Numbered from the stretch's first letter, positions 16,208 through 64,000 are shown. The stretch: 64,000 nucleotides of DNA from Rhizaria sp. SCN 62-66 (GCA_001724265.1 MEDY01000056.1:1-64000); one strand, 5' to 3'. Made by a program: numbers and translations. Notes: a model not told the origin generated them from the letters alone.

Positions 16208-16767
16208 GTGCAGTTTGCTGTCGTCGATTTTTTGGGTTGTTCTGTGAGCTGGGCGGGCGATATCAAGAGAGAGAGGGGGACGAGTCAGCAGTGAAGAGCA
16301 AGATATTTGAGTTTGATATGAACATGTAGACAACACATATTAGAAATGCAAACAACTAGTCAATAGTGAATTTGCAATTAATTCTACCAAGTTCAGCCTG
16401 ATTCAAAATAACGGACGTTTTGCTTCCGTTCTAGGCCCTTGATTTGGTGATGACTTGTGAGGCTGATCTTTGTTGGTGCACTCGGCGATGACCGTTGAGT
16501 TAGGCAGCACGTTTCAAGTCACAAGTGCGCACGATACCAAACAATACCCATCAATAGTTTTACTAAGGTATTTTTGCAATACAAATAATGCATATGATAC
16601 GATCAAATCGAAGTCTATGTATCGGTATGCCTTGCAAAGGCATGGTTGTCAGCTGTAACAAAACAAAGCTCGTCGCACAGCTGATCACGTTAAGCTAATA
16701 TAACATCCTAAAAACAGATAATTGAAAGTACAAACATAACATAAATATACAGATTGCGCGTTATTAC

Positions 16768-19700
16768 TTATGTCCACGGCAGGAACATGACGAACAACGC
16801 CGTGCCGAGGAGCGTGTAGACCGCGACCCACAGTCCCACGGGGCCGGACTCGAACACAAGCCTACACAGCAGCCATCCCGCCTGCGCGCACGCAGCCGCA
16901 ACAAGGCTCAGCCCCGCAGCAGCACGCGTGGACAGAGCGCTCAAGTGGCCAGCACGGCCGCCGCCCCTGCCCCTGCCGCCCGAGCCCGCCGCCGCTGCTT
17001 GTTGGAGCTGCGTGGCCGTCGTGAGGACGTTGCAGCACTCTTGCCCGAACCCACTGTTGACGCCCACGCGCGCTGCGAGCGCGCCGGCGTCGGTCTGCCG
17101 CAGCGCCTCGGCGTGCCGCAGCCGCGCACTCGCCAGCCGCGCCCTCAGCCCGCCCTGCGAGCGGGTCTCTGGCTGAGAGCGCGAAAGCGGCTGCGCCTGC
17201 GAGCCGACAGCCTGTGCGCCCGTCTGCTGCTGAGCTTTCGCCCTCGGCCTGGCGTTGAGCGCAAAGCGCGCGAGCGCCCAGTACAGCGCGGGACACGCCG
17301 AGAGAAACCGTGTGGCGACTTGAACGTGCATGACCGTGAGCGCGGTGACCGTGAGCACCAGGATGTGGCCCCAGTAGGGCAACTCGGCGATCGAGGTCGC
17401 GATGTCGCTGTACAGCGCGGTCGTCACACCGGTCGGATTGCTTTCAGGGGCGCTATGACTGGACTGCAAATGCGAGTGACTGTGGGCAGCGCGGGTAGAG
17501 ACAGTAAACGCGGCAGTCGGTGCCGCCGCGGGGCGCGCGTGGCCACTGGCGTGGCCACTGTTGATGGCGTCAGAAAGAGCGACCGCGTTGCCAATGGCAG
17601 CTGCTCCCGCGATTGACTTGGAACTCGTCAATGCGTTCGCGACGACGCCATCGCCATCATCGTCGTCATCGTCATTGCCATCACCATCGCCGTCGTAGGT
17701 CGCGCTGTGGCGAGAGGAGAGCGTCAAGGGCAGTGACCTGTTGGCACCGAGGCTCGGCACGGGCGACAACATTTCCTTCAGGTTGCCGAACCTGTCCACA
17801 TACGTGCCCCTGCTCTTGCTCGTGTCAATCTGCAGATCTACCCGACTATTGCCCACCATGCACTTAGCGCAGCTACGCTTCCCCGTCATTGTCCGCGCCA
17901 AGCCCGCCGCCGCGGCCCCGGCCGCCGCCGCCGCGGCTACTGCGGCGGCCTCGTCCTCGGAGGCGACCCCGAGCCCCGCCGCCGCGGCCTGCGCGCGCGC
18001 ACCGGCGGCCGCGTCCCCGACCTCGGCCGCCGCGGCGAGCGCGCGCAGCCAGGCGAGCGCGCCCCAGAACACCGCCAGCAGCGCGGGCGCCGCGAGGAGG
18101 AAGTTGGGGAGCTGCGCGGGCGTGTAGTAGGCGAAGAGCCCAAGGCCCCAGAAGCGTGCCTGCAGGGAGGAGTAGACCGACAGAGGCGGGAACGGGGTCC
18201 AGGGCAGCGTGACGTAGACGTGCCGACGACGGCGGGGCCTGCTGCTGGTCATGACTCTGCCAGCGCCGGAGCCGGTGCCGGTGCTGGCGCTGGCGAGACC
18301 GCTGGCGTAGCTGTCGATGTCGCTGTCGGCGTACAAGGTCGCGGTGTTCGAGGTCAGCGTAAGCACTCCGTGCGCCTGCGCCTGCGAGTCTAGCTGAGCC
18401 TGTGACCGCGACTGTAAGCCAGTGACCGTGGGCAGTTCGACGGTGACTGCAGTGAGCGAGTACGGGTGCACGGTGCCCTCAGTAAGCAGCTCTTCGCCGG
18501 TGAACGCGAAGGCAAAGCGACGCTCGCTGGCCAGTGTCGCAATGACGGCGGCGCGACGAGCGAGCGCGGACGCACTTTCATCATCGGCAACAGAAGCTCT
18601 TCCACTCTCCCCAGCTGCAGAGTCATCACTCGCACCATTGCCGCTGCCGCCAGAGTCGCTGTGGCCGTCGCCGCGGTAGGTGCGTCCCTCGTACGTCACG
18701 CTGCCGTCGTCGTCGGTGACGGGGGAGGCGCCGTCGAACTGGGACAGGAACGGCCGGCCGATCCGAGCCAGCCACCCGCCATTGCTTGCCGCACTCGCAC
18801 TCAGTTGTCCGGAAGCAGCAGCGGAGGCAGCGGCAGCGGCGGCGGCTGCGACTTCGGCGGTGGCCTTGTCGGTCGCGGTCCTGGGTACAAACGCCGGGGC
18901 CAGTGCGTCCGCCGCCGCCGCGGCCTGCTCCACACGGGGCGCGACCGCGAGCTGCAGCGCCGCCCCCAGCAGCGCCTCGGCGGCGTCGCAGAGCGCCGAG
19001 GCCGGCAGCAGCGGCAGCAGCGAGGGCTCGCCGCGCGCGGGGCACGAGAGGCGGAAGGTCAGCGCGCCGGCGCCGCGGCAGTAGGGCGGGACCACGGGCG
19101 CGGGCGCGGCGGCGAACTGCGCCGCGGCGGGGGATGTTTCTGTCAGAGGGGCCAGGGGCAAAGGGGGCACGGTCAGAGAGGGCGACGGTGATGGCGCGGG
19201 CGCGGCGTAGGGCGCGGCGCGGAGGGGCGCGAACGCGTCGTGCGGGTGCGCCGGGTAGCAGTGGCGCGCGTAGGCAAACGATTGGACGAAGACCACGGGC
19301 GCTGCAATGAGGAGCACCGACGTGAAAGTCATCGAGATGAGTTTGCGCACAATCATGACGACCTTGAACCAGTTGAACGCCGTGTGCGCATACACTGTGC
19401 AGTTCGCAGATGACTACGAGGATGACGACGGTGGTGATAGAGATCCAGCCTCGTCAGAGCCGCTGTCGCGCGCGCTCCGGGACGAGCCCCGCTTCGACTT
19501 GCGCCCGCTGCGGCCGCTGCTGGAAGTTTGGCCGGCCCGGGCGGAGCGAGGGCGCTGCTGAGACGCTGTCGCCACAGCTACAGCCGCAAACGCCTCCGCG
19601 GGGGTGATGGAGAAGGACGACGAGTGCGAGTGCACATAGCCAGTGTACGCGCCGCCGCCAGCGCCTATGAGGAGGCCCGCAGACTCGATGTCGGTCGCGT

Positions 19701-22116
19701 TGCCCTCGGCCTCGGTCACTTCAGCCTCAGTGGCCTCGGCGACGTCGGCCTCGGCGGCGCCGGCGTCGGCGGCGTCGGCCTCGGCGCCCGCAAATATCTC
19801 TGCATCGGTGTCACCAGAGGAGTCGCCACGCCCAACACTGCCTGCGTTGTTGCTGTTGCTGTTGAAGTTGCGGCTATTGGGGAGAGCGCCATTGTAATAC
19901 GAGTCGGCGTTGGAGAGAGACTGCGCGTTGCCAACACTAGCCTTGTTGGGACTGTTGTCGCGGCGGTCAGACGTGGCAATGCGCGTGAAGCCTGCATGTT
20001 CAGCAGCAGTGTGGCCCGAGCCCCCACTCATGCAGGGACTCAGCGCGCTGAGACGGCGCCGCACCGCGGCCGGCAGCACCGCGACACACGCCCGGCGCGC
20101 GGCGCGACACGCGGCCACTCGCACGCGCAGCAGCACCGCACGCGCGCGCCGCACCGCGCTGATTGCCGCGGGGCGGGAAGTTAGGCCGCAGCAGAGGCGC
20201 GGCTTAGTCGCGGAAGGCTGGTCGCTGCTGGAGGCGCCGCTGTAAGAGCTGCCCCCGTGATCGTCGTCGGTCTGCCAGTCCCCTTCGCGGTGGCTGCCGA
20301 TATCGCTGTTGCCGCCGGGTGCCGGGGCGCCGCCGCGCTCACAGTCGCAGTGGCCGCAGCCGTCGGCGCAGCCGCCGCAGAGCGAGTCGCCGTCTGCGCC
20401 GCAGTCGGCGTCGCAGTCGATGTCGCAGTCGATGTCCACATCGGCGGCGGCGTCGGCGGTGGCGGCAACAACGGTCAGCGCCACAGCCTCTGGTCCAGTC
20501 GGTGAAACAAGAGTCTCTGTCTTGGCGCGAGCGCTGGCGCTGCCGGGGCGGCTGCTGCTTGCGCGAGCGCTTGCACTGCTAGGACGACTGCCCTTGCGCA
20601 GACTGATGCCAAGCGAGTTGTTGCTGGTGAGAGCCGCATTGTCCTTGTGTACGCTCACGTTACCACTGCTCGTACGTACGCCGGCGTGCGTGGTGTGTGT
20701 GACGGGATTGGCGCTGCAAGCAGCGACCGCGGGCCGGGTTTCCCTCTCCAGCCGGACGAGCATCCGCGCCGCATCCGCGGCCACCGGCGCCAGCGCGGTG
20801 GCGAGCATGGGCCAGACGACAAAGCCGGTGAGCGTAACGCCGTTGCTGCGCGCGGCCGTGGCAAGCACGCAGAGCGCGACGCCGGCGCTGGCCACGAGCA
20901 TCGACGCGGCGACGCGGGCCGCGAGCAGTAGAAGTGACGGCAGCCGCCGGCGCAGGGCGCGCAGCCACGCGCGCGCGCGGGGGAAGCGGGACCGCGCGCA
21001 CACAGACGTGGGACTGCGGGCCAAGTCAAGCGCAGAGCCGGAGCTGGAGCTCGAGCCGGAGTCATCTGCGTCGGCATCTGGGTCGGAGTCGGAGTTGGAG
21101 CCAGGGTCAGACCAGTCATCATCATCGTCGTCACCGCCGCCGCCACCAGCATTGCTGGTGGCGCCACCGTCCGCCGCGTTCGATGCTGCGATGCGGCGCT
21201 TTTCCTTCTCGTCGGCCTCGGCCGCGGCCGCAATGCGGGCCGACGCGACGTGCAGCAGCAGGCACGCGGTTAGCGACAGCAGCGCGTAGAGAGACTCCGT
21301 GTACGCGGCCGAGAAAAACACGCTGGCCGGGGTCGCGGCGAACAGCAGCGCCGCGGCCAGCGCCAGGGCCTCGCCGCGGGCGCGCACTGCAGCGGCAGTT
21401 GCACTCACAGTCGCAAATGATGCAGATGCTGCCGCCACAGAGGCTGGGGCAAGCGCTGCTGCTGTCACGCCGTCTTCAGACACTGGGGAAACGGGCAAGA
21501 AAGCGGGCGCAGGGACAAGGACGCGGCGCGAGAGAGCGTACATGACGAGCGCGGCCGCGACGGAGGCCGCATTGCTGACAACCAAAGCAGCGAGCACCAA
21601 CAACTCGCGCGCACACCAAACACTCAGGCCAAATGACTCACGCAGAGACGCAACCAACTTGGCCACGAGCAAGACAAGGGAAGGGTAGAGTGGAAAGAAT
21701 GCGTGCATTTTCTCAGCATGATAGCCGAACTGTGCGATTTCGAGGTATAGCAGTCCGTCCCAATGTGCGAACGCAGCGGCAGCACGGGATAACAGCCCGG
21801 GACTGAGAGGGAAGCCCTGCGCGGTGCAGTGTGGCGCCTGCGGGGCAGCATAGGGCAGCCACGGAGACGTCTCAGTAAGCGGTGGTGACGGGTAAGGCTA
21901 CGCTGGCGGGATAGGAGCAGGCGTTGTCTGGGAAAAAGAGCTGGAGGGGGTCGGGAGGTACGGAGGCTGTTCGGCGAGGTGTTTGAAGTCTGCATCATGC
22001 GATGGGAAGCTACCCACTGCACTGTAGATAGTAAAGCCCCACGTAAGGACTGTAGTGCGGAAAAATATGGCAAAGACCAGCACTACGAGCCATCCAGGCG
22101 GCTTGGCAGACAACAT
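16768..22116 (-). CDS. PIGV: GPI mannosyltransferase 2 (PIG-V/GPI18), 1782 aa, read through two in-frame TAGs
   Basis: Track ORFs 21898..22131, 19414..21708 and 16768..19395 share one frame and are separated only by TAG codons. Joined, they give PIG-V motifs in the right order: N-terminal TM, AHWDGLLYLEIAQFGYHAEKMHAFFPLYP, PASVFFSAAYTESLYA, ATAARSNG, YSSLQARFWGLGLFAYYTPAQLPNFLLAAP, MHVQVATRFLSACPALYW, terminal FLPWT. Stop TAA. Confidence 0.92.
19414..19416 (-). other. In-frame TAG in PIG-V (context PPSSSS*SSANCT)
   Basis: Separates the RSNG-containing half from the QLPNFLLA/FLPWT half. The frame is continuous on both sides. Confidence 0.9.
21898..21900 (-). other. In-frame TAG in PIG-V (context APIPPA*PYPSPP)
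   Basis: Lies between the start ATG/first TM helix and the conserved WD motif. There is no in-frame ATG between the TAG and the WD motif. Confidence 0.9.
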
Positions 22117-22416
22117 TTGCAGCCGCCGCACACACCTAGAAGAGGAAAGAGGCTATGGGTATGGGTGGATAACAAGTCCCGATGAGCACATGAATATAAA
22201 AAATACAATATAACTGTAATTAAAATAGTAATTTCGGAGTAATGTTGACACTTGGCGGAACACAGATTGAGGTATTATGCATGCAAAGTGGCCGACACGA
22301 GAGTGCTCACGGTCACTCTGGCTGGCGAAGGTTTGAACCTCGGAACGTTGCGGGGTGATGATAACGACGTTGAACTGCAAGCTACGTCCGTCCAACAGCG
22401 GTTAAACTCACTCACC

Positions 22417-33336: not shown

Positions 33337-36300
33337 ATGACTCTTGCTCGTCGCTCTCTCGCGCAGCCGAGGCCGCGTCCGCTGTCGCTGTCGCCGCTGC
33401 TGCTGTTGCCGCTGCTGCTGCCCCTGCTCCTGCTCCTGGCGGCCCCAGCGCTGGCGCAGTACAGCTTCGAGGTGCCCTCGACGTGCCCCACCACGACGAC
33501 CTTCTTCGACACGACGGCCTACCAGTGCTCCGCCTGCCCCCCCAACCAGGTCGCCACGGGCCTCCAGTCCCCCGCGTGCGCCTGCCAGCCCGGCTGGGCA
33601 GCCTCCCCCGGCGCCGCCTCGTGCACCGAGTGCGTCGCGCCGCTCGTCCCGCGCCGCGGCGGGGCCAGCGGCTGCCTGGCCTGCGACGGCGTCACCGCGA
33701 CCTACGATGCAGCCGCGCTCGACTGCGTCTGCGCCAACGCCGCGCTCGTGCTGGTGGAGACCACCGCGTCGGGCGCCCCGCTCGCCGCCAAGCAGTGTGT
33801 GTTGTGCCCCGCCAATGCCATCGTCTCGGACACGGACCCGTACGCCTGCGTCGCCTGCGACGACCCCCTGATGACGCGCAACGCCGCCGCGCCCTACGCT
33901 TGCGGCTGCCCCACAGGTTACACCCTCGTCGGCACGACCCCCTACAGCCGCTGCCTGCCCGCGAGCTCGCTTTCCACGCTGCGCACGTCGTACCCGCCCG
34001 CACAGGTGTCGCAGATCTCCTACCCGGCGGTCCGCAGCACCGACTCGGGCGACGCGCGCGCCGTGACGGTCTTCTCACCTCTGCTCGCTCAGTGGTTCGA
34101 TCCCTCGGCGCTGGCCTGCAAGGGGCTGCTCGATGCGACCATGACGGCCGCCGCCGTTGCCACGGCCGTGCGGACCGCGTGCCAGACGGCTGTGAACCTG
34201 TGCGTGCTGGCCATGAGCAACATGGCGCATCCGGCCTGCCGCTTCGTGCAGACGCACACACTCACCATCTCCGACGTAGTGTGGGGCTTCTCCGACTGGC
34301 GCCAGAGCATGCCCTTCTCCTTCTACTCCGACGCGCCCACCGCGCTCGACAATGGCGACATTGCGACCACGGTCGCGCTCACGGGGGCCAACGCGGCGGA
34401 CCTCTCGCGCCAGTCGCGGCTGTCGTACCGGCTACAGACGTTCGCGCTCAACGGCACGCTGCTCGCGTCCACGGTCCTCGCCACCGAGCTGCACCTGTGC
34501 CCCGCCGTCGTCGCCTTTGCCAGCAGCGGCCTCACTTCCAGCGGCACCGCCGCCACCAGCGCCACGGGCGCGGACGTGGACATGACGTCGACGCGGTTCC
34601 TCAACGTCGGCGCGACGTACGAGTCGTCGTGCACGCTCGAGCTGCTACCGCTCGCCGAGGGTCTCCGAGACGCGGATCCGGTCTTCTACGAGCTCTTCTT
34701 CACCGACACGGGCGGCCGCTGGTACCCGGTCCCCGTGCTCGTCAAGGACCTGCGCGACGGCTCGCTCACCTACAACACAGACGTCTCGGTGTCCGCGCGC
34801 GTCGACAACACGCGCACGCGCGTGCTGCGCCGCTTCTTCCTCGCTGACGGCGCCGCGACCGCGCCGTCAACGGGCGCGCTCCCGGCGGTGCTGACGTACG
34901 CCAAGCGGGTCACCCTGCGCGTCACCATGCGGTCAGGCTCGGTGCAGAAAATCAAGCCGCCCGTGCTGGTGCTCGAGTACGCCTCGCGCCTGCAGGCCGA
35001 CTACTCCTCGGCCTCGACCTCGCGGCGGCGCGCCGCGCTGTCGTTCTCGCAGCAGTACGTCAAAGGCCTCGGCTCCGCGGCCGTTGCGGCGTACGTCATG
35101 TTCGCGCTCATCATGGTCTGGGTCATCCTCATCTGGATCGTCAAGCTCATCGTGCTCGCCAACAAGGAGCGCGCGGGCGGCATGGGCCTCGGCGCCGTCA
35201 TGGCCGTGTTCGCGCAGCTGCTCGGCATCTGGGGCGAGTGGGCCTTCTGGCTCGTCTTCGCTTTCGCGACGTACCTCTTCATCTTCTTCAAGGGCCAGGA
35301 TGAGGTCCACGTGCTCATGCCTGTGCCGCCCAAGTCCGTCTTTGGGCTCTGCTTCGGGCCCTTCCTCATCACCGCGACGGTCTGCTGCCTCATTGCGCTC
35401 ATCGTGCGCGTGTACCGGCAGATCTCCGTCGACGTGCTCTTCATCGACTGGGAGGCGCCGCCGCCCACCTCGGCCTACGGTCACAACGCCGGCGGCGGCG
35501 GCGGCGGGGGCTCGCTGGGCTCGGTCTCGGCGTGGCGCAAGGTGTTGGTGGCGAACAAGTGGCAGTCGCTGCAGGCGCGACGCGTCATCGCGCTTGCGCC
35601 GACGCTATGTGTGCTGCTCTTCCTGCTCTACGGCGTCGGGCTCGAGGGGCTCAGCACGGCGCAGCCAGACGGCGGGAACCTCTCGGCCGACGCCGCGCCC
35701 ATCGACCCCATCCTGCGCTTTTTCGTCACCTCGGTCATTTTCCTCGGGCTGGCCGGGCTGCAGCGCGCGTTCGCGTCCGTGGTCACGGACTGCTTCGTCC
35801 CGCGGCCCACGACGCAGTTCCTCGACCTGCTGTCGTCGACCAACATCTCATGCTGCATCTTCGACGCCAAGCACCACATGTTCTACCTCCACGGGCAGAC
35901 GGTGCACGCGCGCGCTGACGCCAGCATGGAGGAGCTGCACCGACAGCTGTTGCGCGAGCGCCGCAACTGGGTCCACTCGCGCGGGCTCGTCGCCGAGGAG
36001 TCCAGCTTCTCGGTGTTTCTCACGCCGGCCTTCCGCGGGCACTACGACGCTGAGTACGGGGCGGTGCTCCACAGGCACCAGCAGATGTGGCAGCGTCAGG
36101 TACGGCAATGACGCGTGATCGCTAACTATTTTTTGTCTCATGTTTTGTTGCTTTGTCGCATTTTGTCAACTTATGTCTCTTATTATATCGAACCTCACAT
36201 GTTTCACTTTGTTTCCACCTTCGCAATTCAGGGCGCTCGCGCGCAGGCCGCGGCGGGCGACTTCGGCGCCGGCAACTCGAGCGTCGAGATGGGCGATCGC

Positions 36301-40000: not shown

Positions 40001-43000
40001 AATTATGGAGTGCGTACCTCTGTTTTGGCCCTCTCGAGCAAGGGATCTTTCTCTTCTTCCTTCTCAGGCGGAGAGAGCTCCCACGCGCGCCTCAACCCGC
40101 CACAAAACGCCACAACAAGATCATGTGGTAGCCAGTGCGCACCGCCGGCCGCGGTATATTGACACGCGCATGACGCGGCTTGATTTTGAATCGGGTTGAC
40201 TGGGATGTCGAGCGTCGCTGCGCAAAACAGTGCAAACGTGCGCGACGAATTGGTATCAGGGATAAGGCGGCGGTGGCAGTGCGCGCAAGTAGGGGAGCTG
40301 TAAACAGCAACGCTAGCCGTACTGGGGTTATAAGACTGATACACCGCACCATCGTCGTTGTTGAACATGCTCTCGATTGCGAGCGTCGGGTTGCTGTTGC
40401 TGTTGTTGCTGATGTAAGTGTTCGTTGCAGAGTAAAAGCCGTCGGCTGCAAGTGCACGCAACGCTGCAGCACGACGACGACACACAGTCTCGTTCCAATG
40501 TGCCGATCCCAACAGAAGTCTGTACAGAGGATACAGCACCGCAAACTCGCTGTGGTCGCGCGCCCTCACCATGCTTACACTCGAGCTCGTACTCGCAGTT
40601 GCAAGAACACCGCTATCGCTGTCTGTGCTTGGGGATGTCTGGCGATGAGCCGAGATGACTGCCCGCACTTCAGCGCGTTTGAACAGCTCGAGGGCGCGCT
40701 GCGCGGTGGCGCTGTGGTCGCTCGACAGCGCGGGCAGCAGCACGGCCCACAGCGCGCGGCGCGAGTGCGTGTACGCGCGGGCGAGAGAACACGGCAGAGG
40801 CAATGATTGGGCCATGCTTGCGGTACTCTTAGTCGTGCTTGTCAATTGATGTTTTGGTACTGCCGCAAGGAAAATCGCCTCCACGTGATGCAGAATGATG
40901 AGCGCCTTTGCACTGTTGGCTGCCCGCGGCGGTGGGAAGCATGACAGCACATGTAGCAAAAATGGCACCAGGAGATCCTAAACAAAATACAGCATCAAGC
41001 AAGCAAACGGAACAAAACATTCGGACAAACGATGTGAGCCGTATTGCAGTCAATAACACAAATGTTCGGTCCACCAGTATCTTAAAAGCACGCACCTTGT
41101 CAGCTTTGATTGCAGTGAGGGCAAGTCGGAGCAGCGGCTCATGGAAGGCGCCGAGCACAGCTTCAGTACCAACACCGCCGCCACTGTTTGCAGTGAAAGC
41201 ACCTCCACTCACAGCACCAGCAGACTGGAATAAGGAAGCTAGCGAGCCAGTGGCACTCGGTCCTGCTGCTGCTGCTGATACCAGTGAACCTGACGCTAAA
41301 TTCGCGCTGCTCGCAGACGCGTCGGAGGAGCGCGCAAGCGGCGGCCCATCCAAGGGGCCGGCGCGGGGACCACTGCGCGCGCCTGCAAGCCGGACGGCCA
41401 AGCCACCTTGTTGATGGTGCAGGCCGGCTAGCTGCACAGGCAACCCACCGGGCATCACAGGGCCGGCAAGAGGGCCTGCCCGGGGGATGTGGTGAGCGGA
41501 CATCGGCGTAGACACGTGCTGCGGAGTAATTGCAGCGCCGGCGCTGCCCCGCGGCGCAAGAGAAAAGAGCAATCCGCCGGGAGCCGTGCCCGCAACTGGC
41601 CCCGCAACGGGCCCCGCTATCGGGCCTGCGATCGGAACATGTCCCGACGCGTGAGTTTGCCCGTGCACCGCGTGGTGATGATGCGGGGCCACCGGAATGC
41701 CCGAGGACGCAGCGAGCGCGCGCCTGCGCAACGAGTCGCCGCTGCCGGCGCCGGGAAGAACGCCCAGTGCGACGCCGCTGTGCACAGGAGCTCCACCAGC
41801 ACTACCGCTGCCAGGACGCGAGAGTGCACTAGCGGGGTGGGTGCCAGCCGTGGCGGCCTGCTGCGCAAAGCGAGACGGGACGCGCACTGAGCTCGCTGCA
41901 ACGGTCGCAGGCGTTGCATTTTGCGATGAAGATGGCGCCAGATGCTGTGAGTTTGACTTGGTTATCAATGTTGCAACAGCCAGGTTCGAATGTGGCGTTG
42001 CTGCCGCTGCTGCCTCAGCTTCATCATCTTCTGCAAAGTCACTTGAGCCACGGCCTCCCATTGAATTATCCCCACGAGTCTGCATCTCTGTTGCGACAAG
42101 CCGTGCGACCTCAAAAGCAACTGCTCGACGTTCAGTAAGTTCAGAGTCACCATCGCTAGACGCCGCAGCGTCAGTGCCCAGACCTAGTACGTCGGTGTTG
42201 TAAAGGTCAAGAGCAGAGGAACTGTTCGCGACTGGATTCACCTTCATGCCACTGCTTCCCGCAAGTGAGTGGCCGTTTGCAGACGCGTCGCCAACCATGC
42301 CCTCGGTGCACCAGAGCTCGGCAACGACTGTCAACAGCAGGCGGAAGTTCAGCCTCTTCTTGGCGAGAGAAGCACTTACGTGTTCATTACCATTGTTGCT
42401 GTAAGCAGCACATACGCACTCATTGGCTTCAGGAAATTTAGCGCAGATCTTGGAATGTTCCTGCTTGCATGCACCTGGCGCTGACGTGGTCGTGGTTTCG
42501 CAGTTATCTGGCTGCAGAAGAGCGTCGTTCAATGGTGCCATCACCGCATGAATCAGCTGCAGCGCTTCCGCAACGCCCCCGGCCTCGCCATACAGCGGCC
42601 CCGCAGAGAGCAACGCCGCGGCCGCACTGCCGCCCTCGACGCGCGCCGTCACGCCGCTCTCGGGAGCCACGGCACCGGCACCGCAAGGGGGCAACTGCGG
42701 CGCGGGAATGCGTGGCGGCGCTCCAGTGGATGAGCGATAGCTTTGCGCAGAGTTGCCGTGCAAAGATGAAGCAAGATTCAAATTGATGCCGGCCGCGCCC
42801 TCAAGACCCCGACTCAAAAGCGTGTTCAGCAAAGCGACACCTGGCCCACATGCAGAAGCGTCACTTGATTGGTCCGGTGTCTGCGGTTGTGACGCCGTCT
42901 GCATCTTCGTTGCACTGCTGGTGAGTGACCACAGCAGCGGCGCTTCAAGATCAGCCTCGCTCACATTCACATGGCTTGGAGTACTGGAGTTGGATGCCTT

Positions 43001-44995
43001 CGAATGTACGGTGATAGCCGGAAGCGCTGCAGAGCCCAGCGCGACTGACGCCCCACTGCGCATGACAAACACTGCCAGCGCGTCGCCCAGCGCCTTGCGG
43101 ACCACGCGTCGCGCGCGCGCGCACGACTTGTACAGCGCCTGCAGCAGCGCGCGCGCGGACGCGGCCTCGCGGGGGTCGGGCGCGTGTGCGATCGTGAGCA
43201 GCCGCGGACCGACTGCAAGCGGGGTAATCACACCGGCAGCGCCTGCGGCTGTGGACGGGGCTGTGCGGCTGCGGTCCACTGGAGTCGTGACCGCAGGCAG
43301 CGGCAGCGTGACCGTGAGCGGAGTGAACAGACCGGCGCCGAGGCGCGCGGTGAGCAGCTGCAGGAACGGGAGGCTGGCGAGCACTGGCGGGGCGGAGACG
43401 CGACTGTGCGCCGTGACAATCGAGCCCTGCTGACTGGGGGCACGGCTGTGCGAAGTGTAACTATAAGAGCGGCTATGATTGTGGTGTGATGTTTCCGGCG
43501 CATACGTGAACGATGTCGAGGAGAGACCGATGCCGGCGACTGCGCGGGGGTCGATGTAGCCCTCTAACTGCGAGCTGTATGTCTCATCCAAAGTCGCAAT
43601 TGTAGTGCGACGCCTTGCACCGCAATCAAGAGCACTCTCGTTATTGCCACATGATACCAGCTCGCATGCAAGGGACTCGGCAGCCTTTGACGCGACTCCG
43701 GCACGAGCCGCAGAGCTAAGAAATAACCTCTTCTTCAAGCGATCGCTGCAAGCTGCAGCATTCGCATTTGCTTCATTCGCGTCATCATCCGAATCACGCA
43801 CTTCATCTTCGCTATCTTCGTCTTCGTCTCCGTCGCCGGGACTCACCGGCGGTGCAGCAGTGCACACCTGCGTCAGCACGGAGTAACACTGCAACAGCTG
43901 GGCGACAGCAACCTCAGACACCGCCTCCGCGGCCTACGCAGCGGCTGCGGCAGCGGCAGCGGCTTCCACTGCGGAAAGGGCCGCAATAGTCGCAGCGGCC
44001 ACAGCAGGGTCCGCGATCGCGACTGAGCTGCCTGACAGCGGCGGCTGCGAAACGCTACTGGCATCGTTAGCGGCCAAAGCACTTGATGTAGTGGCACAGC
44101 GAGGGGGTTGCGTCAGGCCAGGTGTTGCCGGCACAAACGAGGGGGTAAAGCCCGCCGCAAACGACCGTGATAACACGTCCTCGTAGCCGGTCCCGGTGTC
44201 GTTACCAGTCGACGGGCCGAAGCTGCCTTGCGCTTGCGCGAGCTGCGCATGCGACTGCGCCTGTTCGCGCAGCCTCTTGATCTCGCCCAGCGACCCTTGC
44301 TTCGCCGTGCTGCCTGCAACAGCCCCGCCGAGGCCCGCACTCGAGCTCGAGCTTACACTGTGGCTGTTGCTGTTGCTGTTGCTGTTGTTATGGCTACTCA
44401 TACTGTGGCTCGAGGGCGCCGCAGCCCTTGAGGGCGCGTCCGTCACAGTCACCACGGTCACCCCGGGTGGCACCCACCGTGGTACGCGCAGTTTGTCCTC
44501 CCGCGTCGCGCTAACGGCGCCCGCATGGGTCAACTGTGAATGTGGCCCTGCAGCAGCCGATGTTGCCGTCACTGCAGTGGCCGCCGTGGAGACAGCGCGC
44601 TCGCGATCCCGCTCGCGCGCGCGCGCCACGAGCTCTGTCTGCCGCGCGGCCGCGTGCGCGGCGTGCTTATTGGCCGCTGCGGCGTCGGCGCGCGCCCAGG
44701 CGGCGGTGAGCGCGGCGGCGGCGAGCGCGTACAGCCGCGGGTCGTGCCACAGCGGCTCCAGGTCGCGCGCAGCGCCGGCGCGGAAGCTGCGGGACAGCGC
44801 GCGGTACGCAGAGGAAACCTCAGTCAGCGCGGCGGTAAGCGCGGCGGTCGAGGGCGCGGGGCAGGTGACGGGCGCTGAGAGGGCGGATAGTTGGGAGAGG
44901 AGGGACTGGCAGCCAGCCTGCTGCTCGGCCTCGAAGGCCGCATCGGCCTCTGCGTCAGACGAGTCTTCGCCGGGTGACGGCTCACGTCGAGACAT
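37080..44995 (-). CDS. Fusion of a PP2A B56 (B') regulatory-subunit-like domain and a PDK1-like Ser/Thr kinase, about 2559 aa; exons 44995-41096, 40977-40018, 39899-37080; one in-frame TAG
   Basis: Four track ORFs are joined by TAG 43934-43936 and two 118-nt phase-0 introns (40978-41095 GTGCGT..TAG; 39900-40017 GTACGC..CAG). B56-like motifs in order: DPRE...LLQALY...R..VRKAL, GVAEALQLI, FHEPL, NSAKALIILHHVEAI, SSDHSATAQRAL, HWNETV. Kinase motifs: LGAGSF, VAVK, YFVLEL, GDLKLENVLL, KLADFG, GTAEYLAPE, SDLWGLGCVLY. Stop TGA. Confidence 0.8.
43934..43936 (-). other. In-frame TAG in the B56-kinase gene (context AAAAAAAA*AAEAVSEV)
   Basis: Sits inside a GC-rich poly-Ala run, with no intergenic-like or intron-like sequence on either side. 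Confidence 0.88.
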
Positions 44996-45323
44996 TGGCT
45001 GTCGCGTGTTGTACCTTGATATTGTGCTTGGATTTGAATCAGCGCTGTCTGCGGTCCGGTATGCGTGTTTGAGTCAAAAGCTGCAAATTGTAGGTCCACA
45101 TGGGTGCAATGTGACATGAGTTTAGTGAGCGATTGATCTCAGCACATTGTCCGTCAGGGAAGATATCAAATAGTAAATGAAATTTAAATAAATACATATT
45201 TGACGCTCCTTTAATTAAACCCTCTATTCGTTTTTTTATAACTCACATTCGATCCTTTTCACTTGACTCTCGTCCAGCCTTTTCTTCTGCCCGCCAGCCG
45301 TTGGCACTGCGCCTCGTCTCGGC

Positions 45324-48300
45324 ATGGCGGATCATTCAACTTCATGGGGAGAGGATGAGCCTAATCACACTGACGTTGATGTTAACGACCCGTACTACGC
45401 GACATTTGCCACCGCAGACGGGTTCGGGGGCGTGCAACTCTCCCTCGACATTCCCCACCACAATCACTCTTCAGGCCACCGCAGGCGCACTGCCGCGTCT
45501 GGGGCGCCAGGGTCGGCGCTGGCGCACGGCGACGATGACGCCGATGTGCTGTCTGGCGACGAAGCGACTGCCAGCGGCAACGTTTTTGCGACTGTGGCGC
45601 ATGAGATCATCGACTCTGACATCGACTCGGATTGCGAGCAAGCGCTCGCGGCAAGCGCTGCCACGAATGCAAGCTCTCCGGCGCAGACAGGAGGTCATAT
45701 TGAAACTGCAACCGCGCCACCGGGAAGTATCTACACTCGCCATAAAAGGTTAGCGGCCGCTGTGACGGATAGCGCTCAAAATGCTCGTGAACAGCCTGTG
45801 ACAACGACCGCCGCTCAAAGCTTCCAATCACTGCAGTCACAATCAAACGCACATTTGTCTCAGAGGCATTTGCGCACACACTCACCTCATACTGGGAACC
45901 AATTGTTGGCGGCGGCGACAGCGCAGTCTCGAGCGGCGCAACCGTTGCATTCTGCGCCGCAGCAGCGAGGCCAAACACTGCAGTTGTCATGGGAAGTCAG
46001 CGGCAACGCAGCGGAATCTCTCAGTTCACTCTTGGGACCATGGGCGCGCTCTCTTCAACATCAACTTATTACGCAGTCAGCGCGACAGCAGCGATCACCG
46101 CAACGAGTGCCACACACCGGCAGCAACGCTGCGGCAACCTTAGCGGCCGTGACGCCAGCTCCAGTGTCGCAGGCTCAGTTCCTCTCGCAGCACTCGCGCG
46201 CAGCCCCGCAACTACACATGCATACGTCGCCGCGGCTGCCAGACTTTTTCGGGACCACGCCGCGCGTGTACTGTCCTGTGCTTCCGCCACTGCCCACGCA
46301 CGAGCTTGGCGGCGGCCTAACTTCAGCAGCGAGTGCTACATGTTTCCGTGACCATTCGAAAGCGCGGCGCATTGACGCCCGCACAGCTGACCGACCTGCA
46401 ACTGCGGCGGCATTATTGGCGCCTGCTGGTCCGAGTGATCATGAACAGTTTTCTTTGCCCCCCGCTGACTGGCTGCCGCTGGTCACTCCCAACAAGAATG
46501 TTACCGCAAGTGGCACTTTCCATCTCAAGCCCCCGCACCCGCTTCAGTGGCCGTTCCCTCCCGCGGTGCCGCGCACCTCGTCCTCATCTTCACACCAACC
46601 TGCTCCTTCCGCTGTTGATACCCACCGCCAGCGCATGCTTCGCGCACCAAGCCCGCTGCTGCAGCTGCCGCCGCCCCCGTGGCAGCGGCCGCGGTGGCGC
46701 CAGTCAGCCGCCGCCCCCGCCTCCGTCTGGGGCCTGCTGCTGGCGGCCGACCCTGCGACAGTGGCCGCGCTCTCGGGTTTTCTTGCCGCAGCAGCAGCAA
46801 CGGCTGCACATTCCAACAGCTAGGGGGGACTGACTGCTGTCGACATTGCGATGGCGGCCGCTGCGGCTCCCGTCGCGGGGATCGACGGCGTCGCGACGTT
46901 TGCAAACGCTGCCGCGACATCAGGGAACACTGTTGCTGCCAATGCGACACACGCGTTTGCTTCTGTGATAAGAAAGCGCACAGAGGCTAGTGCAGATGCG
47001 CTGAATGCGATCGCGACAGCGTTTCCGGCGCAGCTTGCCGCATTGGCGCAATCTGCTATGGCCGCAGCAAAGCTCGCCGATAAAAGCACACACACGAGTA
47101 ATGTGTCAGTGAAGCGTTCTTTCACTGAACATGAAAGTGATCTAACTCAAGTTCTTTCGCTGAGTTTATCGACTTTGCCTTTGTTTCCGTTTCCTCTATC
47201 CCCTATCGTCACCGCAGCTTCTGTCGCCGCGTCAGTTGTTTCTAACAGTAGCAACAACACAAATGGCGACAATGCTATACCATTGACTGTTGCTGCGCCC
47301 GTGGAAGCCGCTCGCCTATTGCGCCTCTCACAGGCACTGCCGACGCTGGCGCTGCTTTGCCGCTTGCGGGCCGCCGTGCCCCGCTCCGTGGTGCGGCCCG
47401 CGTCGCTCGAGCCGCCCCCGCTCGTGGCGTTGCCTTTCGTCACCAGTGCGTGGCACCCAGTCGTGCGCACAGTGGCGTCTGCACACGGTCACTCGGCGGC
47501 GACCGCTTTAGGCCAAGGCCAGACTAATTCACACGGTCGCTCTGGCGACGTCTCCGCGTCATCTCTGATGAGTCATTACAACCAGCCCGGCTCCACCGCT
47601 GGCGCTGCCGAGGCCTCCGCAGCCACGGCCGCTGCCATCGGAGCCCTCGCTGGCGTCACAGGCGCGACCGCCGCGGAATCGCTGGCCCGCGTGGCCGCCG
47701 CGGCGACTGCCGCTGCAAACGCGCTCGCGACGGCTGGGGACGCCGTTGCGGACGCCTTTAGCGACAGCGTAAGCCACTCTGACGCTCGCAGAGGCGATCG
47801 TGGCATAACCGTTACTATCGATGCAAATGCAGGTGCTGTGGCCGCGGGCGCTGTGGCTGCAGCTGGGGTCATGTCACTACGTTTGTTTCATATGATGAAC
47901 GGTGAAAACATTGGTCTTCCCTCTTTGCCCCCGAGCATCACTGTTGCAACGCCGGTTCACCCTCTGTCACCGCTTGCAAACTCTGTGTTGCCGATCTCAA
48001 CTCGTGATGACAGTGTGAACGCGTTGATTGCGCAAACACAGACAGCCGTAATCACTCAAAGTCAAGCCGCTTCCCCAGCCCACGACAAGGGCAGCGTCTC
48101 CCGCGGCGCCGTTGACTCAGCCCTCGCGTGGCTCGGCTCCGGGCCTGGCCCCGCGGCGGGCGCTGCTGCGGCGGCGGGGCCGGGGCGCGGGCTGCAGCTG
48201 TGGAGCGACAGCGAGCTCAGCACCGCTGCTGCTGCCGCCAGGTCTGCTCGGACTGTGGACAACACTGGTGGGAGGGCAACGGTGAGCACCTCACAGCACA

Positions 48301-51300
48301 CGCAACGCAAACACAGCCGTGGGGCTGCCGCAATGAGCAGCAACGGTTCTGGTATGAACGTGTTTATCACACTCGTGAAGGCTGCCGCCAACAATTCATC
48401 AGTTTTTGCCACGAGCGATCTCAACAATCCTGGCGCATGTTGTGAACGTGTGATGTTGCAGCGACACGCTGTGGCCGTGAGTGAATCCGCCCTGTCACTT
48501 GACCCTGCAGCACTCACTTTGATTCACTTCACTCCTCACACCGCTCACCATAACATTATTGCGAACAGTTCTCCGTCTGATCAAAGCACTTCACAGCTGC
48601 CACTGTTGCGTGCGTCAAGTGTCGTCACCATCACGCTTCCCACAGTCGCTGCGAAAGACTTTGGTGCATACGGCAAGGACCCGTCCGTGCCTGCCCCTGG
48701 TCTCGCCCCTGGCTCTGGCCTCGGCGCCATCCGTTTGCTGCTCCCAGCGGGCGCTGGCGGCCGCGGCGCTGCGAGCGGGGTCCCGTCGCCGGCTGCAGAG
48801 TCCGCGAACATCGTGTTCACACACGATCTCGTGCTGAAGGCTGTTGATGTCGCGCGGGCGCTTGTTGCGGCTGCTGCGGAGGCGCGGGCTGCTGCGCAAA
48901 TTAAGGCTGCTGCGACTGCAGCTGCAGCGAACGCAAATGTTCGTCGAAGTTTGACAGGAAGTCAGTCAAATCGAGCCACTGCAACGAGAACTGCTCGATC
49001 CGCTGAAGCGGTGAATGAAGCGGCAGTTGTCCTGTCAGAAAGTGATGCAACAAACACCGGCGATGCTGAAGACAACGCCGCCGAGGGTGCGTTTGCCGTT
49101 GTTAATGTTGCGTCAGTGGCAGCACAGGTTGTCGACAACGCCCTCTCGCTTCCCAGCGTAACCGCAACGACGCCCGCGGCCGCGGCCGCGCTTGCTGAGG
49201 CGGATGAAGCTGACGCCGCTGTTGCTGCTGCGTCTCCGGTGATCCTGCTGCGGACACTGAACCTCATCTTCGCGTTCATCACGAGGGTTCTTCCCACGGT
49301 GACAACCGCGGAGATCGCAGATACTGTGTTTACGCGCACTCTCTACTCGCCACACGCGCTGACAACGACGGAGACCGGTTTTACGGCTGCGACACCAACA
49401 GATGCAACTGTCGCTGCAGGTAGGGCGCTTGTAGGACTCCGCTTGGCGGAGTCCAGGCAAGGACAACGGTCCCAAACCGGGCGAGCAGACGATACGAATG
49501 ACGCAGGTCCTTATTCAGGTACTGTGAGGGGATGGACGATGGGCTGCGCAACGATTGAGATGCGTAATGTACGCCTACCTGTTCATAAACCGCAAGAAAA
49601 CAAGTCAGAGCGCTCTTCCTCTGATGCTGTCGAGTCGGATGTGACTGTCCTTTGTGGCGGTTGTGATGATAACGATGTTGTCACTGTTGATGACACCGAG
49701 GGTGAGAGCGACGTAATCACACTGGACTCAGATAGAGACAATGATAACGTCATTATTAATGATGATAATGACGTAATAGTCACCACAGTCAAAACTCGAG
49801 CTTCAAGCAGGGCCACTACGAGTGCTAGCAACAATGCTGGCGCTGGTTCTTTTGCAAGGGACAGTCTGAGTCGCCACACGCAGAGTCGAGCACTGCTTGG
49901 TTCGAAGGCAACTGCTCGGGCTCGTACAGGTAAAGAGGCACACGCTCAAAACTTTACCAGCAATGTCACACATTCTCAGAGCAACAATGTTCAACAGAAG
50001 AACACTGGAATTGTCGCGGACACGTTGACCCATTCATGTCCGTACGACGTCGCGTATCCGCTGCTCGCGCATCTGCCCCCGTGTGCGCCCCCTTACTTCC
50101 ACACTGCCGCGTTTGCAGAGGCGATGGAGGCGTTTCCGCGGCTGCCAACCACCCTTACGCCTCACGGTCAGTACTTAGACGAGGTCGGCGGGGAGTGGCC
50201 CCCAGTGCAAGTGTGGGCTCCATCTACACCACCACAACACCAACAACGGCAACAACAACATCAATCGGCATATAAGCAGGGAACGGAAAGCCAGTTGCCA
50301 GATGCAAGGCCAACTCTCATCCTTGCTGGATCACTTGCCACGACTTTTATCAATCCCACACGCGGCAATTGCACGTGTCCGTCTTGCCTCAACAACGAGT
50401 CGAACAGTGCTAACTCTACTAGCGATGCCGGAACTGGTTCCGTGCGCGCCCTCGCCGCCGCCGGCCTGCCGTCGAATGTTAAGCCGCTATACCCGCACCC
50501 GGTTGCGGTCACCGCCGCGCTGCCTAGCGAGCCCCGCGCGGCCGAACTCGCGCTGCAGAGGCTCGGGTTCTTGGCTTCGGCCGTGACGAAGCTCGCGTCC
50601 GCGCCGGTCTTGGGGGGCGCCGCCGTGGCGGCTGTCGCGTCGGCTGTCAGCGCCGCTGCGAGTGCGCGCGAGTACCAACACACCACTGCTCGTTCCGACT
50701 CCCGCGGTAGCAGCAGCAGCCGCGGTGCCAGTGCGAGCGCGAGCGCGAAAAGCAACGTTGCTCCCGGTCAGACTAAGCACGCAAACAAACCCGCGTTCAA
50801 CAACTACAACAAGGGCGACGTGGACGCCCTGCTTAAAGACGACGACGAGACTTATCTTGCAGCTTTGGCGAACAGCGCGTCGTATCTGCTCAGCTTCTCC
50901 GTCCCCTGCTACCACACGTGGGTTTCGGACATCTCTGCGGGGCGAAGGGAGCTGCTCACGGTCATCAAGCGTCGCAAGGGACGCGAGATTGCGCTCATGG
51001 ACCTGTGGCGGCTCTACATTCAGCGTGCGCGCAAGGCGGGGCAGCTGCCGTTGGCCGCCAGTGAAATCAACAGCAATATCAACCATCTTGAAAGCAATAA
51101 TGGCGGTGCCTCTGGATCGGGTGCTGCCCCGGCGCCAGCAGTAGCGCCAGCACAAGGGCCGTCGATGCTGATGGGCGCGGAAGGGCCCGTCGTGGCTGCC
51201 ACGGGTCGGTCGCTGGCGTTCCACATCAAAGACCTGGTCGTGAACGGCGTTGTGGACTACATCGCGGTCGGCAGCGGCGGCGTGCTCAGGGCCAGGAAGG

Positions 51301-51323
51301 GCGCGGAAAAGAAGGATAAGTGA
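45324..51323 (+). CDS. STK19: Giant STK19 / winged-helix repair factor-like protein, 1999 aa, read through one in-frame TAG
   Basis: C-terminus SYLLSFSVP....WVSDISAGRRELLTVIKRRKGREI.L.DL...LAFHIKDLVVNGVVDYIAVGSGGVLR matches the STK19 C-terminal winged helix. ORFs 45324..46823 and 46851..51323 are in one frame, separated only by TAG. Stop TGA. Confidence 0.72.
46821..46823 (+). other. In-frame TAG in the STK19-like gene (context AHSNS*GGLTAVD)
   Basis: Same frame continues. Only 27 nt lie between the TAG and the next ATG, too short for an intergenic spacer of the kind seen elsewhere here. Confidence 0.85.
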
Positions 51324-53275: not shown

Positions 53276-55261
53276 TCAGCTGGGCTGCGCCGAGCGCAGC
53301 GCCGCCAAGACCACCGCCGCCGAGAGCGCTGCTGCCGCCGCCGGTGCGGGTGCTGAGAGAGGCGAGGGGTCCGTGTCGTGCATCGCCGCAGTGGCGGCCA
53401 CGGCGGCGGCGGTGAGGGCCTGGGTCGACAGCGGCTGCGCCGGCTTCACCGGCAGCAGCAGCATGCGCCCGCCGCTCGGCGGCGCCGGGGCGGCGACTGC
53501 TGGGGCGGCGACTGCTGGGGCGGCCGCGGGCGACTGCGACTGCACGCGTGAGGAGTTTGGCGCGGGAGCGACTGGTGAGCCCGTTGCTGCTGCATTCGAT
53601 ACAGCAGCAACAGCAGCAGCCGCCGCGGCGGCCGCAGCGGCTGCGACGGCAGCAGTTTCTACAGACGCAACAGCGCCAGCCGCCTTTGTATCGACTTGGC
53701 TGCCGACGGCGTCCTTGCCAGCAGGGACGGTAGCACTCACGAGACGGTTCGGGCTTTCATCAGTGTCCACGTCATTACTCTTGTTGGCCCTCCGTGTCCG
53801 TTTGACAGCTGGCGCAGCTGAGCGACTACCCCGAAGTACATCACCCTGACCAGACCTCGCACCCATCCTCGCACCCTTCTTGACCGCCACCAGCTCGTCG
53901 TCGCAGCTCTTGGCCAGCGCCGCGTACGTCATGCCCCGCGCGTCGGCCACCGCCACCAGAGCGGCGAGCTCCGGCGTCGCACTGTCACTGTAGCGGTTGG
54001 CCCACGCCCGCGCCGCCTCGAGCGCCGCCGCGTCCAGCTTCGTCTGCCGCACCAGCTGCGCCACAGACCGCTGCAGGCGCACTGCGCGCGCGCTCGAGGC
54101 CTCGGCGGCGCGCTCGCTCTGTGAAACCGCAGCGGCGCACTCGTTCTCGAGGCGCAGGCGCGCACGGCGCTCGCGCATCGCCAGCGACCGCTTGAGGCGC
54201 TGGGTAGCAGCTGCGTTGGACGCGTCTGCGCCTATGGCGGTGGTCGTGGCGGCGCGAGTGCGAGTTCGCGCGCGGACTCGTTCCGCAGAGGGAGTGGAGG
54301 GAGCTTCGAGGTCATCGGCACGATCATCGCTGTCGTTAGCGTACTCAACGTCATCAACCTCGTCCTCATCGTCATCATCCTCACTCTCATCATCGTCATC
54401 GTCATCGTCAGTGCCGGAAGCGTCAGAGGTATCGTCAGCGTCGGCGTTCCTGCGCTTGCGAGTTGTGCCAGGAGACCCCGGCCGTGGAGCGCTCCGCTGC
54501 GGCGTCTCCCCGCGCGCACCCATCTGTCCCCCCTGGTCTCGCGCGGCGCGTCGCACAGTGCGCGCGTGCAAACGCTGGACACAGGCCTCCTCGTCAGCGT
54601 GTGCCTAGTCGGCGGCGGCTTGGGCCTCTGCGGCCGCCCGCGCCGCCTCTGAGCGCTACGGCTGATCCCGCCTCGCCTTGCGGGAGTTCGGGTCCCGCTC
54701 CGAGAGAAAACCCAGCTCGCGGTCCTTGCGCGCCTGTACCGAGAGGCCCGACGAGGCGCGCCGGGAGCGGGGCAGCGTGGCCGTGGCGAGCGGTCTGCGG
54801 GCGCTAGCGCTTGTTCTCGCGGCTGCGCTGGTGCTGCGGGATCGGGCTGTGCGAGAATTGTTGTGTTTAGATGTGTTGTGGGCACGGGACGCCTTCCCAG
54901 AGCCAGTCATGTCGTCGTCGTCATCATCATCATCTCCATCTTGGTCCTCATCTTCGTCCTCGTCCGCGTCTTCGTCGCTGTTGCAATGATCCTCAGCTCC
55001 ATCTTCGTCCTCAGTTTCATCTTCGCCTGCGTCATCGTCTGCAGCCTTAACATCTGGATCAACATCAGAGCTAGCAGCGGTATCTCCGTCGCCGGTGTCG
55101 TTTCTGTCGACGTCAGTCCCACGATCACCTGCACTGTCGTTGTCATCGTTGTTGTCGATACCGTTGTCGCCGCAGGGCTGGCTCGGAGTCAGAACGGATG
55201 AGAGAGTTGCCTGATAATAGCCCTGAAGTTTAGCAGGACCAACAAACAAACCGCACGTCAT
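53276..55261 (-). CDS. Hypothetical acidic/Ala-rich coiled-coil protein, read through two in-frame TAGs; 5' end uncertain
   Basis: ORFs 54656..55318 and 53276..54571 are in one frame, linked by *RSEAARAAAEAQAAAD*AHADEEACVQRL. Coding-like composition throughout. ATG 55261 is provisional because a possible splice acceptor lies at 55223. No family recognised. Stop TGA. Confidence 0.6.
54605..54607 (-). other. In-frame TAG (context AQAAAD*AHADEE)
   Basis: 17 codons after the previous TAG. The frame then stays open for more than 440 codons. Confidence 0.8.
54656..54658 (-). other. In-frame TAG (context RRDQP*RSEAA)
   Basis: Frame continues through coding-like sequence. Confidence 0.8.
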
Positions 55262-55906
55262 GATAAACCGTGTCGTCTCAATGTTCAATCGTGGTTTTGA
55301 CGCAGTTCGCGACCACAAGGGTGTGCAATAGAGTCTTCTCTGTGTCAGTCAAGGTCAGCCAAAACTCTGAGCAAGGCCGGTATGGAAGCACCTATGGAGG
55401 CTAAGGGATACAACAATCGCCAACATATAAATAGCATAATGAATATTATTCCTTATCAAGAAATTATTCATAATCACGTATATACTTAGTGTGCGACATC
55501 ATTTTGCGAAGGCACATGAATGGCGGTCAGGGCGCAACCTTGCGCGGAGAACGATCAAGTTTTAGGATGAAATGATCGTCGATAGAGGAATAGATTGTAA
55601 AAAAAAGTAATAATACATAGGATACATTTAATGCAAAAACCATAGTAATTAGCAAAAACATCCCGCATCGCAGCAGGTTAAAATTGTATTGACGACTCCA
55701 GTGTTAACTTTAACACCTTTCTGTGGAGCAACGAACTCCGCTGGTGCTGAGCCTTATGACCACCCACGAAACAGCGATAATAAAACGTCTTAATATGTAA
55801 CTTGGTGTGCCTAAAACTATGTAACTAATACAGTCCCGCTGCAAAACCTCGCAATCTCACGCTAGATCCAATGATCGGCTTGTAGCGTAGTGTGTCATCT
55901 CGGCGG

Positions 55907-63700: not shown

Positions 63701-64000
63701 CGCGGAGGCCGAGATCCTCGCGTTTCGCGTCAACCTCGACGACGAGGACGAGGACGAGGATCAAGACAGTGAGCACGAGTCCGACGCCGCAAGCGGCAGT
63801 GACAGCGAGGACGAGCGCGACAAGGCTGCTCGCGCCGCCCGCGCGCAGAACGACCTTCGCGCCGCGCTGCCCGCCCTCCCCGTGGCACCGCAGCCGCAGC
63901 CGTGGTTCGAGTGGGTCCTCGGCGCGCACACGGGCTCGCTGCGGTCCATCATCGCCGCCGCGACCACCCACGCCGAGGAGAGCGCTGCGGTCAGCACCGT
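57729..64000 (+). CDS. Very large low-complexity protein with a fragmented C2-like domain and an RS/SD-rich tract; one in-frame TAG; runs off the window
   Basis: Track ORF ends at TAG 61347-61349, but the same frame continues (DEDERDMLLLPVPETLPTPVIVLTWEDA...) with no stop apparent to base 64000. Copine-C2-like pieces: VRVRVACASLP, VAQTE, NPAFEQCIEI, LKLCVYD...DF...A.LTL.QLL. Start is ATG 57729 or 57780. Confidence 0.7.
60420..60980 (+). repeat. Arg/Ser- and Ser/Asp-rich low-complexity coding tract
   Basis: Alternating RRRR/SRSR and SDSDSES blocks in the translation. Confidence 0.75.
61347..61349 (+). other. In-frame TAG (context GADAFE*DEDERD)
   Basis: Embedded in a continuous acidic stretch. 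The nearby upstream GT sites (61306, 61321) would shift the frame into a TGA if TAG were a splice acceptor. Confidence 0.88.

Follow-up and report, generated by a model that had tools for sequence, protein, structure and literature searches.

A 64,000-nt stretch of DNA from Rhizaria sp. SCN 62-66 (GCA_001724265.1, MEDY01000056.1:1-64000; hereafter the window) carries a gene of the PIG-V family (glycosylphosphatidylinositol (GPI) mannosyltransferase 2), whose reading frame contains two TAG codons, named TAG1 and TAG2 in the order of translation. We consider it likely that in the nuclear code of this organism UAG serves as a rare sense codon, and hence that the PIG-V gene is intact. The two TAGs are real and in frame, and the blocks of the family keep their order before and after them. 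Throughout the window, TAG is the only stop codon to occur in frame in sequence with coding character, and no gene ends in TAG. An earlier note on this DNA had presented the PIG-V gene as the strongest single case for TAG readthrough. Readthrough gained support from the TAG pattern of the whole window, but TAG1 lies in a possible in-frame intron of 159 nt. The gene does look intact, but it is not special, for one or two in-frame TAGs also occur in three more long genes and probably in one further gene, in GC-rich sequence with the codon usage of coding DNA.

The PIG-V reading frame and its family blocks

The PIG-V frame ran on the minus strand from an ATG at 22116-22114 to a TAA at 16770-16768, which gave 5349 nt. 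It contained exactly two internal stops, both TAG, and no frameshift, and translation thus bore out what the earlier note had claimed for this frame (coordinates of all features are given in Table 1). The HWD, QLPNFLLA and FLPWT motifs named there were all found in the translation. TAG1 was said to lie upstream of the conserved WD motif with no rescue ATG, and indeed no Met codon occurred from TAG1 to the HWD block; an ATG was present 20 codons after TAG2. Both TAGs were inside low-complexity inserts. The predicted protein of 1782 residues was about four times the usual size (400-520 residues in 76 family members), and four large low-complexity inserts accounted for the extra size. These inserts, the two in-frame TAGs and the length set it apart from other members of the PIG-V/GPI18 family. 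Judged by its sequence, and leaving the TAGs aside, PIG-V appears to be an intact gene. It is a good marker gene for the TAG pattern, and apart from the inflated size there is nothing unusual about the gene itself.

With the TAGs entered as X, the read-through protein matched Pfam PF04188 (PIG-V) at 108.2 bits (cut-off 22.4), and when its pieces were scanned singly they scored 45.6, 46.5, and 36.4 bits, all above the same cut-off. Profile positions 52-138 fell between TAG1 and TAG2, and positions 270-323 and 357-398 were downstream of TAG2. A HMMER scan listed 148 other hits, and the 76 members of 400-520 aa, selected from these on length, went into a custom profile. This profile aligned in five collinear stretches that spanned positions 50-426 of 430, with 265.7 bits. 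The PIG-V motifs were preserved in order, as the earlier note had stated, and the read-through protein qualified as a member of PF04188, with the family blocks in order within one frame. Both halves were in a single chain in 76 of the 76 profile members, and these are the halves that TAG2 separates here. The alignment to family positions 220-268 began 11 residues ahead of the ATG that follows TAG2.

Table 1. Features of the window, by position and strand.
Feature	Position	Strand	Remarks
PIG-V (GPI mannosyltransferase 2 family) gene	16768..22116	-	1782 codons including 2 TAG; ends TAA 16768-16770
TAG1	21898..21900	-	codon 73; between N-terminal membrane helix and HWD block
TAG2	19414..19416	-	codon 901; 9 codons ahead of helix aligning to family positions 220-268
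PIG-V N-terminal helix and PSHDAD stretch	21970..22083	-	residues 12-49, family 5-39; weak, 2.8 bits by itself, but collinear with the other blocks
PIG-V family block 50-229	20761..21795	-	residues 108-452 with inserts; HWD, FFPLYP, SVFFSAAYTESL, RSNG; 141.9 bits
PIG-V family block 220-268	19240..19389	-	residues 910-959; 7.9 bits, weak
PIG-V family block 273-338	18016..18210	-	residues 1303-1367; QLPNFLLAAP; 63.8 bits
PIG-V family block 312-396	17254..17526	-	residues 1531-1621; MHVQVATRF; 47.6 bits
PIG-V family block 379-426	16774..16902	-	residues 1739-1781; C-terminal FLPW; 12.9 bits; relative P0123 has the same ending
Candidate in-frame intron spanning TAG1	21803..21961	-	159 nt, GTACCT...CTCTCAG, GC 0.65, T 0.20
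Long low-complexity gene	40829..44997	-	one in-frame TAG 43934-43936; ends TAA
Long low-complexity gene	45324..51323	+	one in-frame TAG 46821-46823; ends TGA
Long low-complexity gene	57729..64000	+	one in-frame TAG 61347-61349; extends past window edge
Gene with probable upstream extension	53276..55348	-	extension via TAGs 54605-54607 and 54656-54658; ends TGA
Meckelin in-frame intron	36100..36231	+	132 nt, GTACGG...CAG, GC 0.39; contains TGA 36109-36111
INTS11 gene	518-3775	+	C-terminal extension of ~500 residues
3115-codon open reading frame	6989-16336	-	no Pfam family; no in-frame stop of any kind; rich in Ala/Ser low complexity
Prefoldin gene	22417-23271	+	two introns; head to head with PIG-V, ~300 nt from PIG-V start codon
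Two tandem PLAC8-family genes	24471-25074, 26084-26647	+	one intron each; both end TAA
Ras-family small GTPase gene	51737-52696	+	two GTACGT introns; Pfam Ras on last exon; ends ...CCSK TAA

The region after TAG2 was conserved with P0123, the PIG-V of a related organism from a JGI metagenome; blocks of the two were 62-75% identical, and a lineage-specific stretch was among the shared parts. P0123, encoded on a JGI contig of 4053 bases, is known only as the C-terminal 346 aa of PIG-V and starts at a Met within a lineage-specific insert; its gene may be interrupted further upstream too. In the HMMER scan with PIG-V, the near hits among the best 150 of 371 were the two pieces of the gene itself and P0123 only. 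Among the matches listed, protein and metagenome searches found neither a full-length close relative of PIG-V nor a relative's sequence spanning any TAG site. In the protein search, the C-terminal piece matched itself only, and the N-terminal piece gave no match, its low-complexity words having taken all 8000 candidate places. The metagenome scan returned no relative with the whole PIG-V as query and at least 10 distant PIG-V loci (L001-L010) with P0123 as query. The PDB held no solved PIG-V relative detectable by sequence and gave only chance matches to low-complexity stretches. Among the direct repeats of the window, there was no paralogous copy of any TAG site.

Stop codons across the window

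When TAG was read as sense, long open reading frames (ORFs) of four genes fused without a change of frame. One was PIG-V, with both of its TAGs, and the other joined frames were 40829-45073 (TAG 43934), 45267-51323 (TAG 46821), and 57621-64000 (TAG 61347). The gene at 53276-55348 is probably a fifth TAG-bearing gene, with two TAGs: a GC content of 0.62-0.75 was maintained over both and dropped only past ~54900-55400. Reading TAA as sense produced no notable ORF fusion in the window. Reading TGA as sense produced a sole fusion, in the Meckelin ORF, at a TGA (36109-36111) that lies inside an AT-rich intron.

The coding frame of 13 gene models (16,725 codons) contained five TAG, no TAA, and no TGA. 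In the same models, 862 stops were counted at 33,450 off-frame positions, and 570 of these were TGA (66%), 143 were TAA, and 149 were TAG. By composition, the chance that five of five interruptions would be TAG was 0.173^5, or ~1.5e-4, and the in-frame pattern exceeds chance. The 16 gene terminators of the window comprised eight TGA and eight TAA; in this small sample, UAG was not a gene terminator. Several gene ends fell at family-typical C-termini, such as the FLPWT of PIG-V, as in P0123, and the end of the Meckelin profile. Past the TAGs, the frames remained open for 827, 881, 1034, 1499, and >883 codons.

UAG occurred at ~0.3-0.4 per 1000 codons and was not present in the short intron-bearing genes of the window (prefoldin, PLAC8, and the GTPase gene). 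With the two of the probable fifth gene, seven TAGs were considered, and all of them were outside aligned family blocks or in genes without a family. The bases 3' of the seven were CCT, TCA, GCC, GGG, GAC, GCA, and CGC, with no common motif. Their surroundings were rich in Pro, Ser, Ala, Asp/Glu, and Gly, and did not indicate a single residue. A search of the window against Rfam gave no matches.

The host is an uncultured and intron-poor eukaryote of high GC content from bioreactor and wastewater metagenomes; on our favoured reading, it would translate UAG as a rare sense codon and end its genes with UGA and UAA. PIG-V would then be one gene for a 1782-residue enzyme enlarged by low-complexity inserts, and its two TAGs would be ordinary rare codons within these inserts. 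By analogy with published cases, ribosomes would pass the TAGs by means of a cognate tRNA with the anticodon CUA, an eRF1 blind to UAG, or both. A CUA-anticodon tRNA decodes UAG and not UAA, according to PMC5304391; for that reason, a tRNA-CUA would be required if UAG is sense here. A fuller proposal is an independent UAG-only reassignment in an unsampled, GC-rich, intron-poor lineage of wastewater reactors that is neither ciliate, rhizarian nor fornicate, with UGA and UAA as terminators, at an early stage in which UAG is rare and confined to tolerant inserts. We hold this proposal to be about evenly balanced between right and wrong.

Introns, contigs and competing explanations

Family homology on either flank identified seven introns; the prefoldin and GTPase genes had two each, and Meckelin and both PLAC8 genes had one each. 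The introns were 132-250 nt long, with a GC content of 0.39-0.54 and a T content of 0.32-0.43, and were confined to the short genes and the 3' region of Meckelin. Their 5' splice site was near-invariant (GTACGT in six of seven and GTACGG in the other); a search of the literature on a GTACGT 5' splice site found nothing. The Meckelin intron is a control for the appearance of a stop within an in-frame intron in this genome. Meckelin profile positions 193-687 were matched before it and 696-825 after it, in the last exon (36232-36807), and the true stop was the TGA at 36808. Simple ORF calling would cut this gene short at its intron TGA. VPS9 has a candidate 5' intron, marked by a minus-strand GTACGT at 32654-32649.

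No GTACGT was found within 400 nt upstream of the five TAGs that were tested. For TAG2 and the TAG at 46821, there was no GT-AG pair with a 5' site matching at least five of six bases. TAG1 has a candidate intron (Table 1), whose GC content of 0.65 and T content of 0.20 were unlike those of all seven recognised introns; it is rather unlikely, in our judgement, that TAG1 alone is removed by splicing. Up to 60 nt from the seven TAGs, the GC content was 0.59-0.73, and for six of the seven this went with frame-0 codon-usage scores that were for the most part positive. A frame-0 codon-usage score was taken over 30 codons per side, for which training windows gave a mean of 0.40 (sd 0.26, n=296) and off-frame readings gave -0.49 and -0.53. 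Beside the TAGs at 43934, 46821, and 61347, this score was 0.39-0.77.

The window was represented in several metagenome runs from bioreactors or wastewater, with a share of its sampled words of 1.00 in run X1, 0.84 in X2 and X3, and 0.68 in X4. X2 belongs to the same study as X1, which is the probable source, and X4 is from a separate study. Contigs of X2/X3 (19311-20459) and X4 (19087-19773) ran across TAG2 with no difference listed. TAG1 was bridged without differences by X2/X3 contigs (21430-23799) only, and X4 had no listed piece across it. Sequence error does not account for TAG2, a codon that was unaltered in the DNA contigs of another study (X4). In a polyA metatranscriptome (X5) from the study of X4, contigs covered several parts of PIG-V, and a 409-letter contig (19192-19600) crossed TAG2 without a listed difference. 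The bin at 21821-22121, which contains TAG1, was without cover in X5. Another X5 contig (22365-22659) extended 56 nt into intron 1 of the prefoldin gene, and yet another (23341-23572) was beyond that gene. The contig over TAG2 was set aside as proof of transcription, since the library may contain DNA or pre-mRNA. Neither errors nor introns accounted for the in-frame UAGs in conserved genes, with the exception of TAG1 and its weak intron candidate.

Several of our results weigh against UAG as a sense codon. The cover of TAG1 came from X2/X3 only, whose pieces were identical and may be one data set, and the intron and extragenic contigs of X5 suggest a library that is not purely mature mRNA. With 16 terminators, up to ~17% TAG ends are still compatible at 95% confidence. 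The TAGs number only seven, all in non-conserved inserts, and point to no particular amino acid. ARAGORN found no tRNA genes in the 64 kb and therefore no tRNA-CUA there. Without the candidate TAG1 intron, the N-terminus aligned as one stretch with 61.6 bits, vs. 52.5 bits with it. The codon-usage score was near zero upstream of TAG2 (0.01, with 0.40 after it) and downstream of TAG1 (-0.01, with 0.22 before it).

UAG might still be a stop that is leaky or dependent on context, and near-cognate readthrough would then give some full-length PIG-V beside truncated products. This would agree with the rarity of in-frame TAG (5 in 16,725 codons vs. 149 at 33,450 off-frame positions), with the place of every TAG in a tolerant low-complexity insert, and with the lack of a tRNA-CUA in the window. 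However, none of 16 genes ended in TAG; a comparison of the 3' bases revealed no shared stimulatory context; and a housekeeping enzyme made mainly in truncated form, with four to five of 17 genes affected, would presumably be costly. We regard a leaky stop as unlikely. Removal of the TAGs from the mRNA, through non-consensus in-frame introns or RNA editing under the standard code, appears quite improbable. The genome does have introns, one of which (36100-36231) is in frame and contains a stop, and the candidate at TAG1 is near the real size range. Nevertheless, that candidate differs in composition from every recognised intron, TAG2 and the TAG of the gene at 45324 have no matching GT-AG pair, and around the other TAGs the codon-usage score is that of coding sequence. 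The RNA-library contigs were also collinear over TAG2, though the library is not clean, and real introns would be expected to hold all three kinds of stop instead of TAG only.

That the TAGs are true nonsense mutations in decaying or dispensable genes, with a functional PIG-V elsewhere or with GPI anchoring lost, is in our view highly improbable. The earlier note had argued against a pseudogene, and so do these observations: all of the 5 to 7 interruptions were TAG although TGA made up two thirds of the off-frame stops, PIG-V had no frameshifts, and the blocks after TAG2 were kept in P0123. The long open frames past the stops point the same way. On the other side, the genes with TAGs show great length and little conservation, three of them have no Pfam family, and a close full-length relative of PIG-V was not found. 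Gene fission, in which the stretches flanking each TAG would be separate genes or separately translated halves, can be given hardly any weight. Gene callers break PIG-V at TAG2, and its halves are recorded as separate proteins, P0122 (764 aa) and P0001/P0271 (862/875 aa), each on four contigs; an ATG is also found 20 codons past TAG2. But all profile members have both halves in one chain, the family alignment starts ahead of that ATG, and the interval from TAG1 to the HWD block is free of start codons. Moreover, the sequences that flank each TAG share one frame with zero spacing, whereas the measured intergenic spacers were 112-1199 nt long with a GC content of 0.37-0.56 (0.60-0.75 in genes).

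Known codes, host organism and neighbouring genes

Changes of the nuclear genetic code are rare. A UAG-only change with UAA kept as a stop is called unusual in PMC5304391 and PMC11687900. As described in the former, UAG stands for Leu in the rhizarian exLh, with 384 UAGs in 71 genes, and for Gln in Iotanema spirale, where UAG codons are scarce; the amino acids were taken from conserved alignment positions, and UAA is given as the dominant stop (PMC5304391). Our case is similar in that the in-frame stops are UAG only and other stop codons still terminate, and it resembles I. spirale in its few UAG codons. In contrast to both, the seven UAGs here are all in inserts, and UGA and UAA end eight genes each. 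For phyllopharyngean ciliates, PMC11687900 reports that UAG has come to encode Leu or Gln, that suppressor tRNA genes were found, and that UAA is the preferred stop. These cases, mined from metagenome assemblies of uncultivated eukaryotes, share with ours the change of UAG alone; unlike what is described for them, the genes here have a GC content of 0.60-0.75, share a contig of 153,568 bases with multiple genes, and end in UGA as frequently as in UAA. UAA, UAG, and UGA are all sense in Blastocrithidia nonstop, according to PMC12153298. The likeness is one of in-frame stops in otherwise intact nuclear protist genes, and the difference is that only UAG is found inside genes here and that gene strands alternate frequently in the window. 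Trypanosomatids have long one-strand gene arrays.

The case thus fits a known kind, UAG-only reassignment, and differs by the GC-rich genome, the equal use of UGA and UAA and, probably, the lineage. A literature search found no GC-rich wastewater eukaryote with a sense UAG, supplements being outside that search. If the sense reading of UAG is true, this would be an independent case in a GC-rich non-ciliate with rare sense UAGs and two working stops, and it would show reassignment while still early or at low usage. Standard-code gene callers already split genes of this organism, as with the two proteins made of PIG-V, so that its public proteome would be mis-annotated.

The neighbouring genes were eukaryotic: INTS11, Meckelin, VPS9, NSRP1, MAT1, a protein kinase, prefoldin, two PLAC8 genes, and a Ras-family small GTPase, which by its translation is probably a Rab and Rab5-like. 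INTS11 scored 516 bits to human INTS11 chains, and a scan of prokaryote genome contigs for it found nothing. It shared 73% identity over the catalytic domain with P0004, the INTS11 of a JGI metagenome, and its C-terminal extension was common to P0004 with 35% identity. P0004 begins at a position aligning to residue 55, and the true start of INTS11 is therefore probably downstream of the GTG at 518. On the strength of these protein comparisons, P0004 and P0123 reveal a related organism in JGI metagenomes. In a quick INTS11 tree of 39 rows picked from 120 listed hits, the window and P0004 made up a long branch that fell apart from the opisthokonts and Balamuthia sampled.

Ala/Ser low-complexity sequence was abundant in most genes of the window. 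In the prefoldin gene, the Pfam Prefoldin match was on the middle exon only. Both PLAC8 copies had their intron right after a conserved first exon of 16-17 codons.

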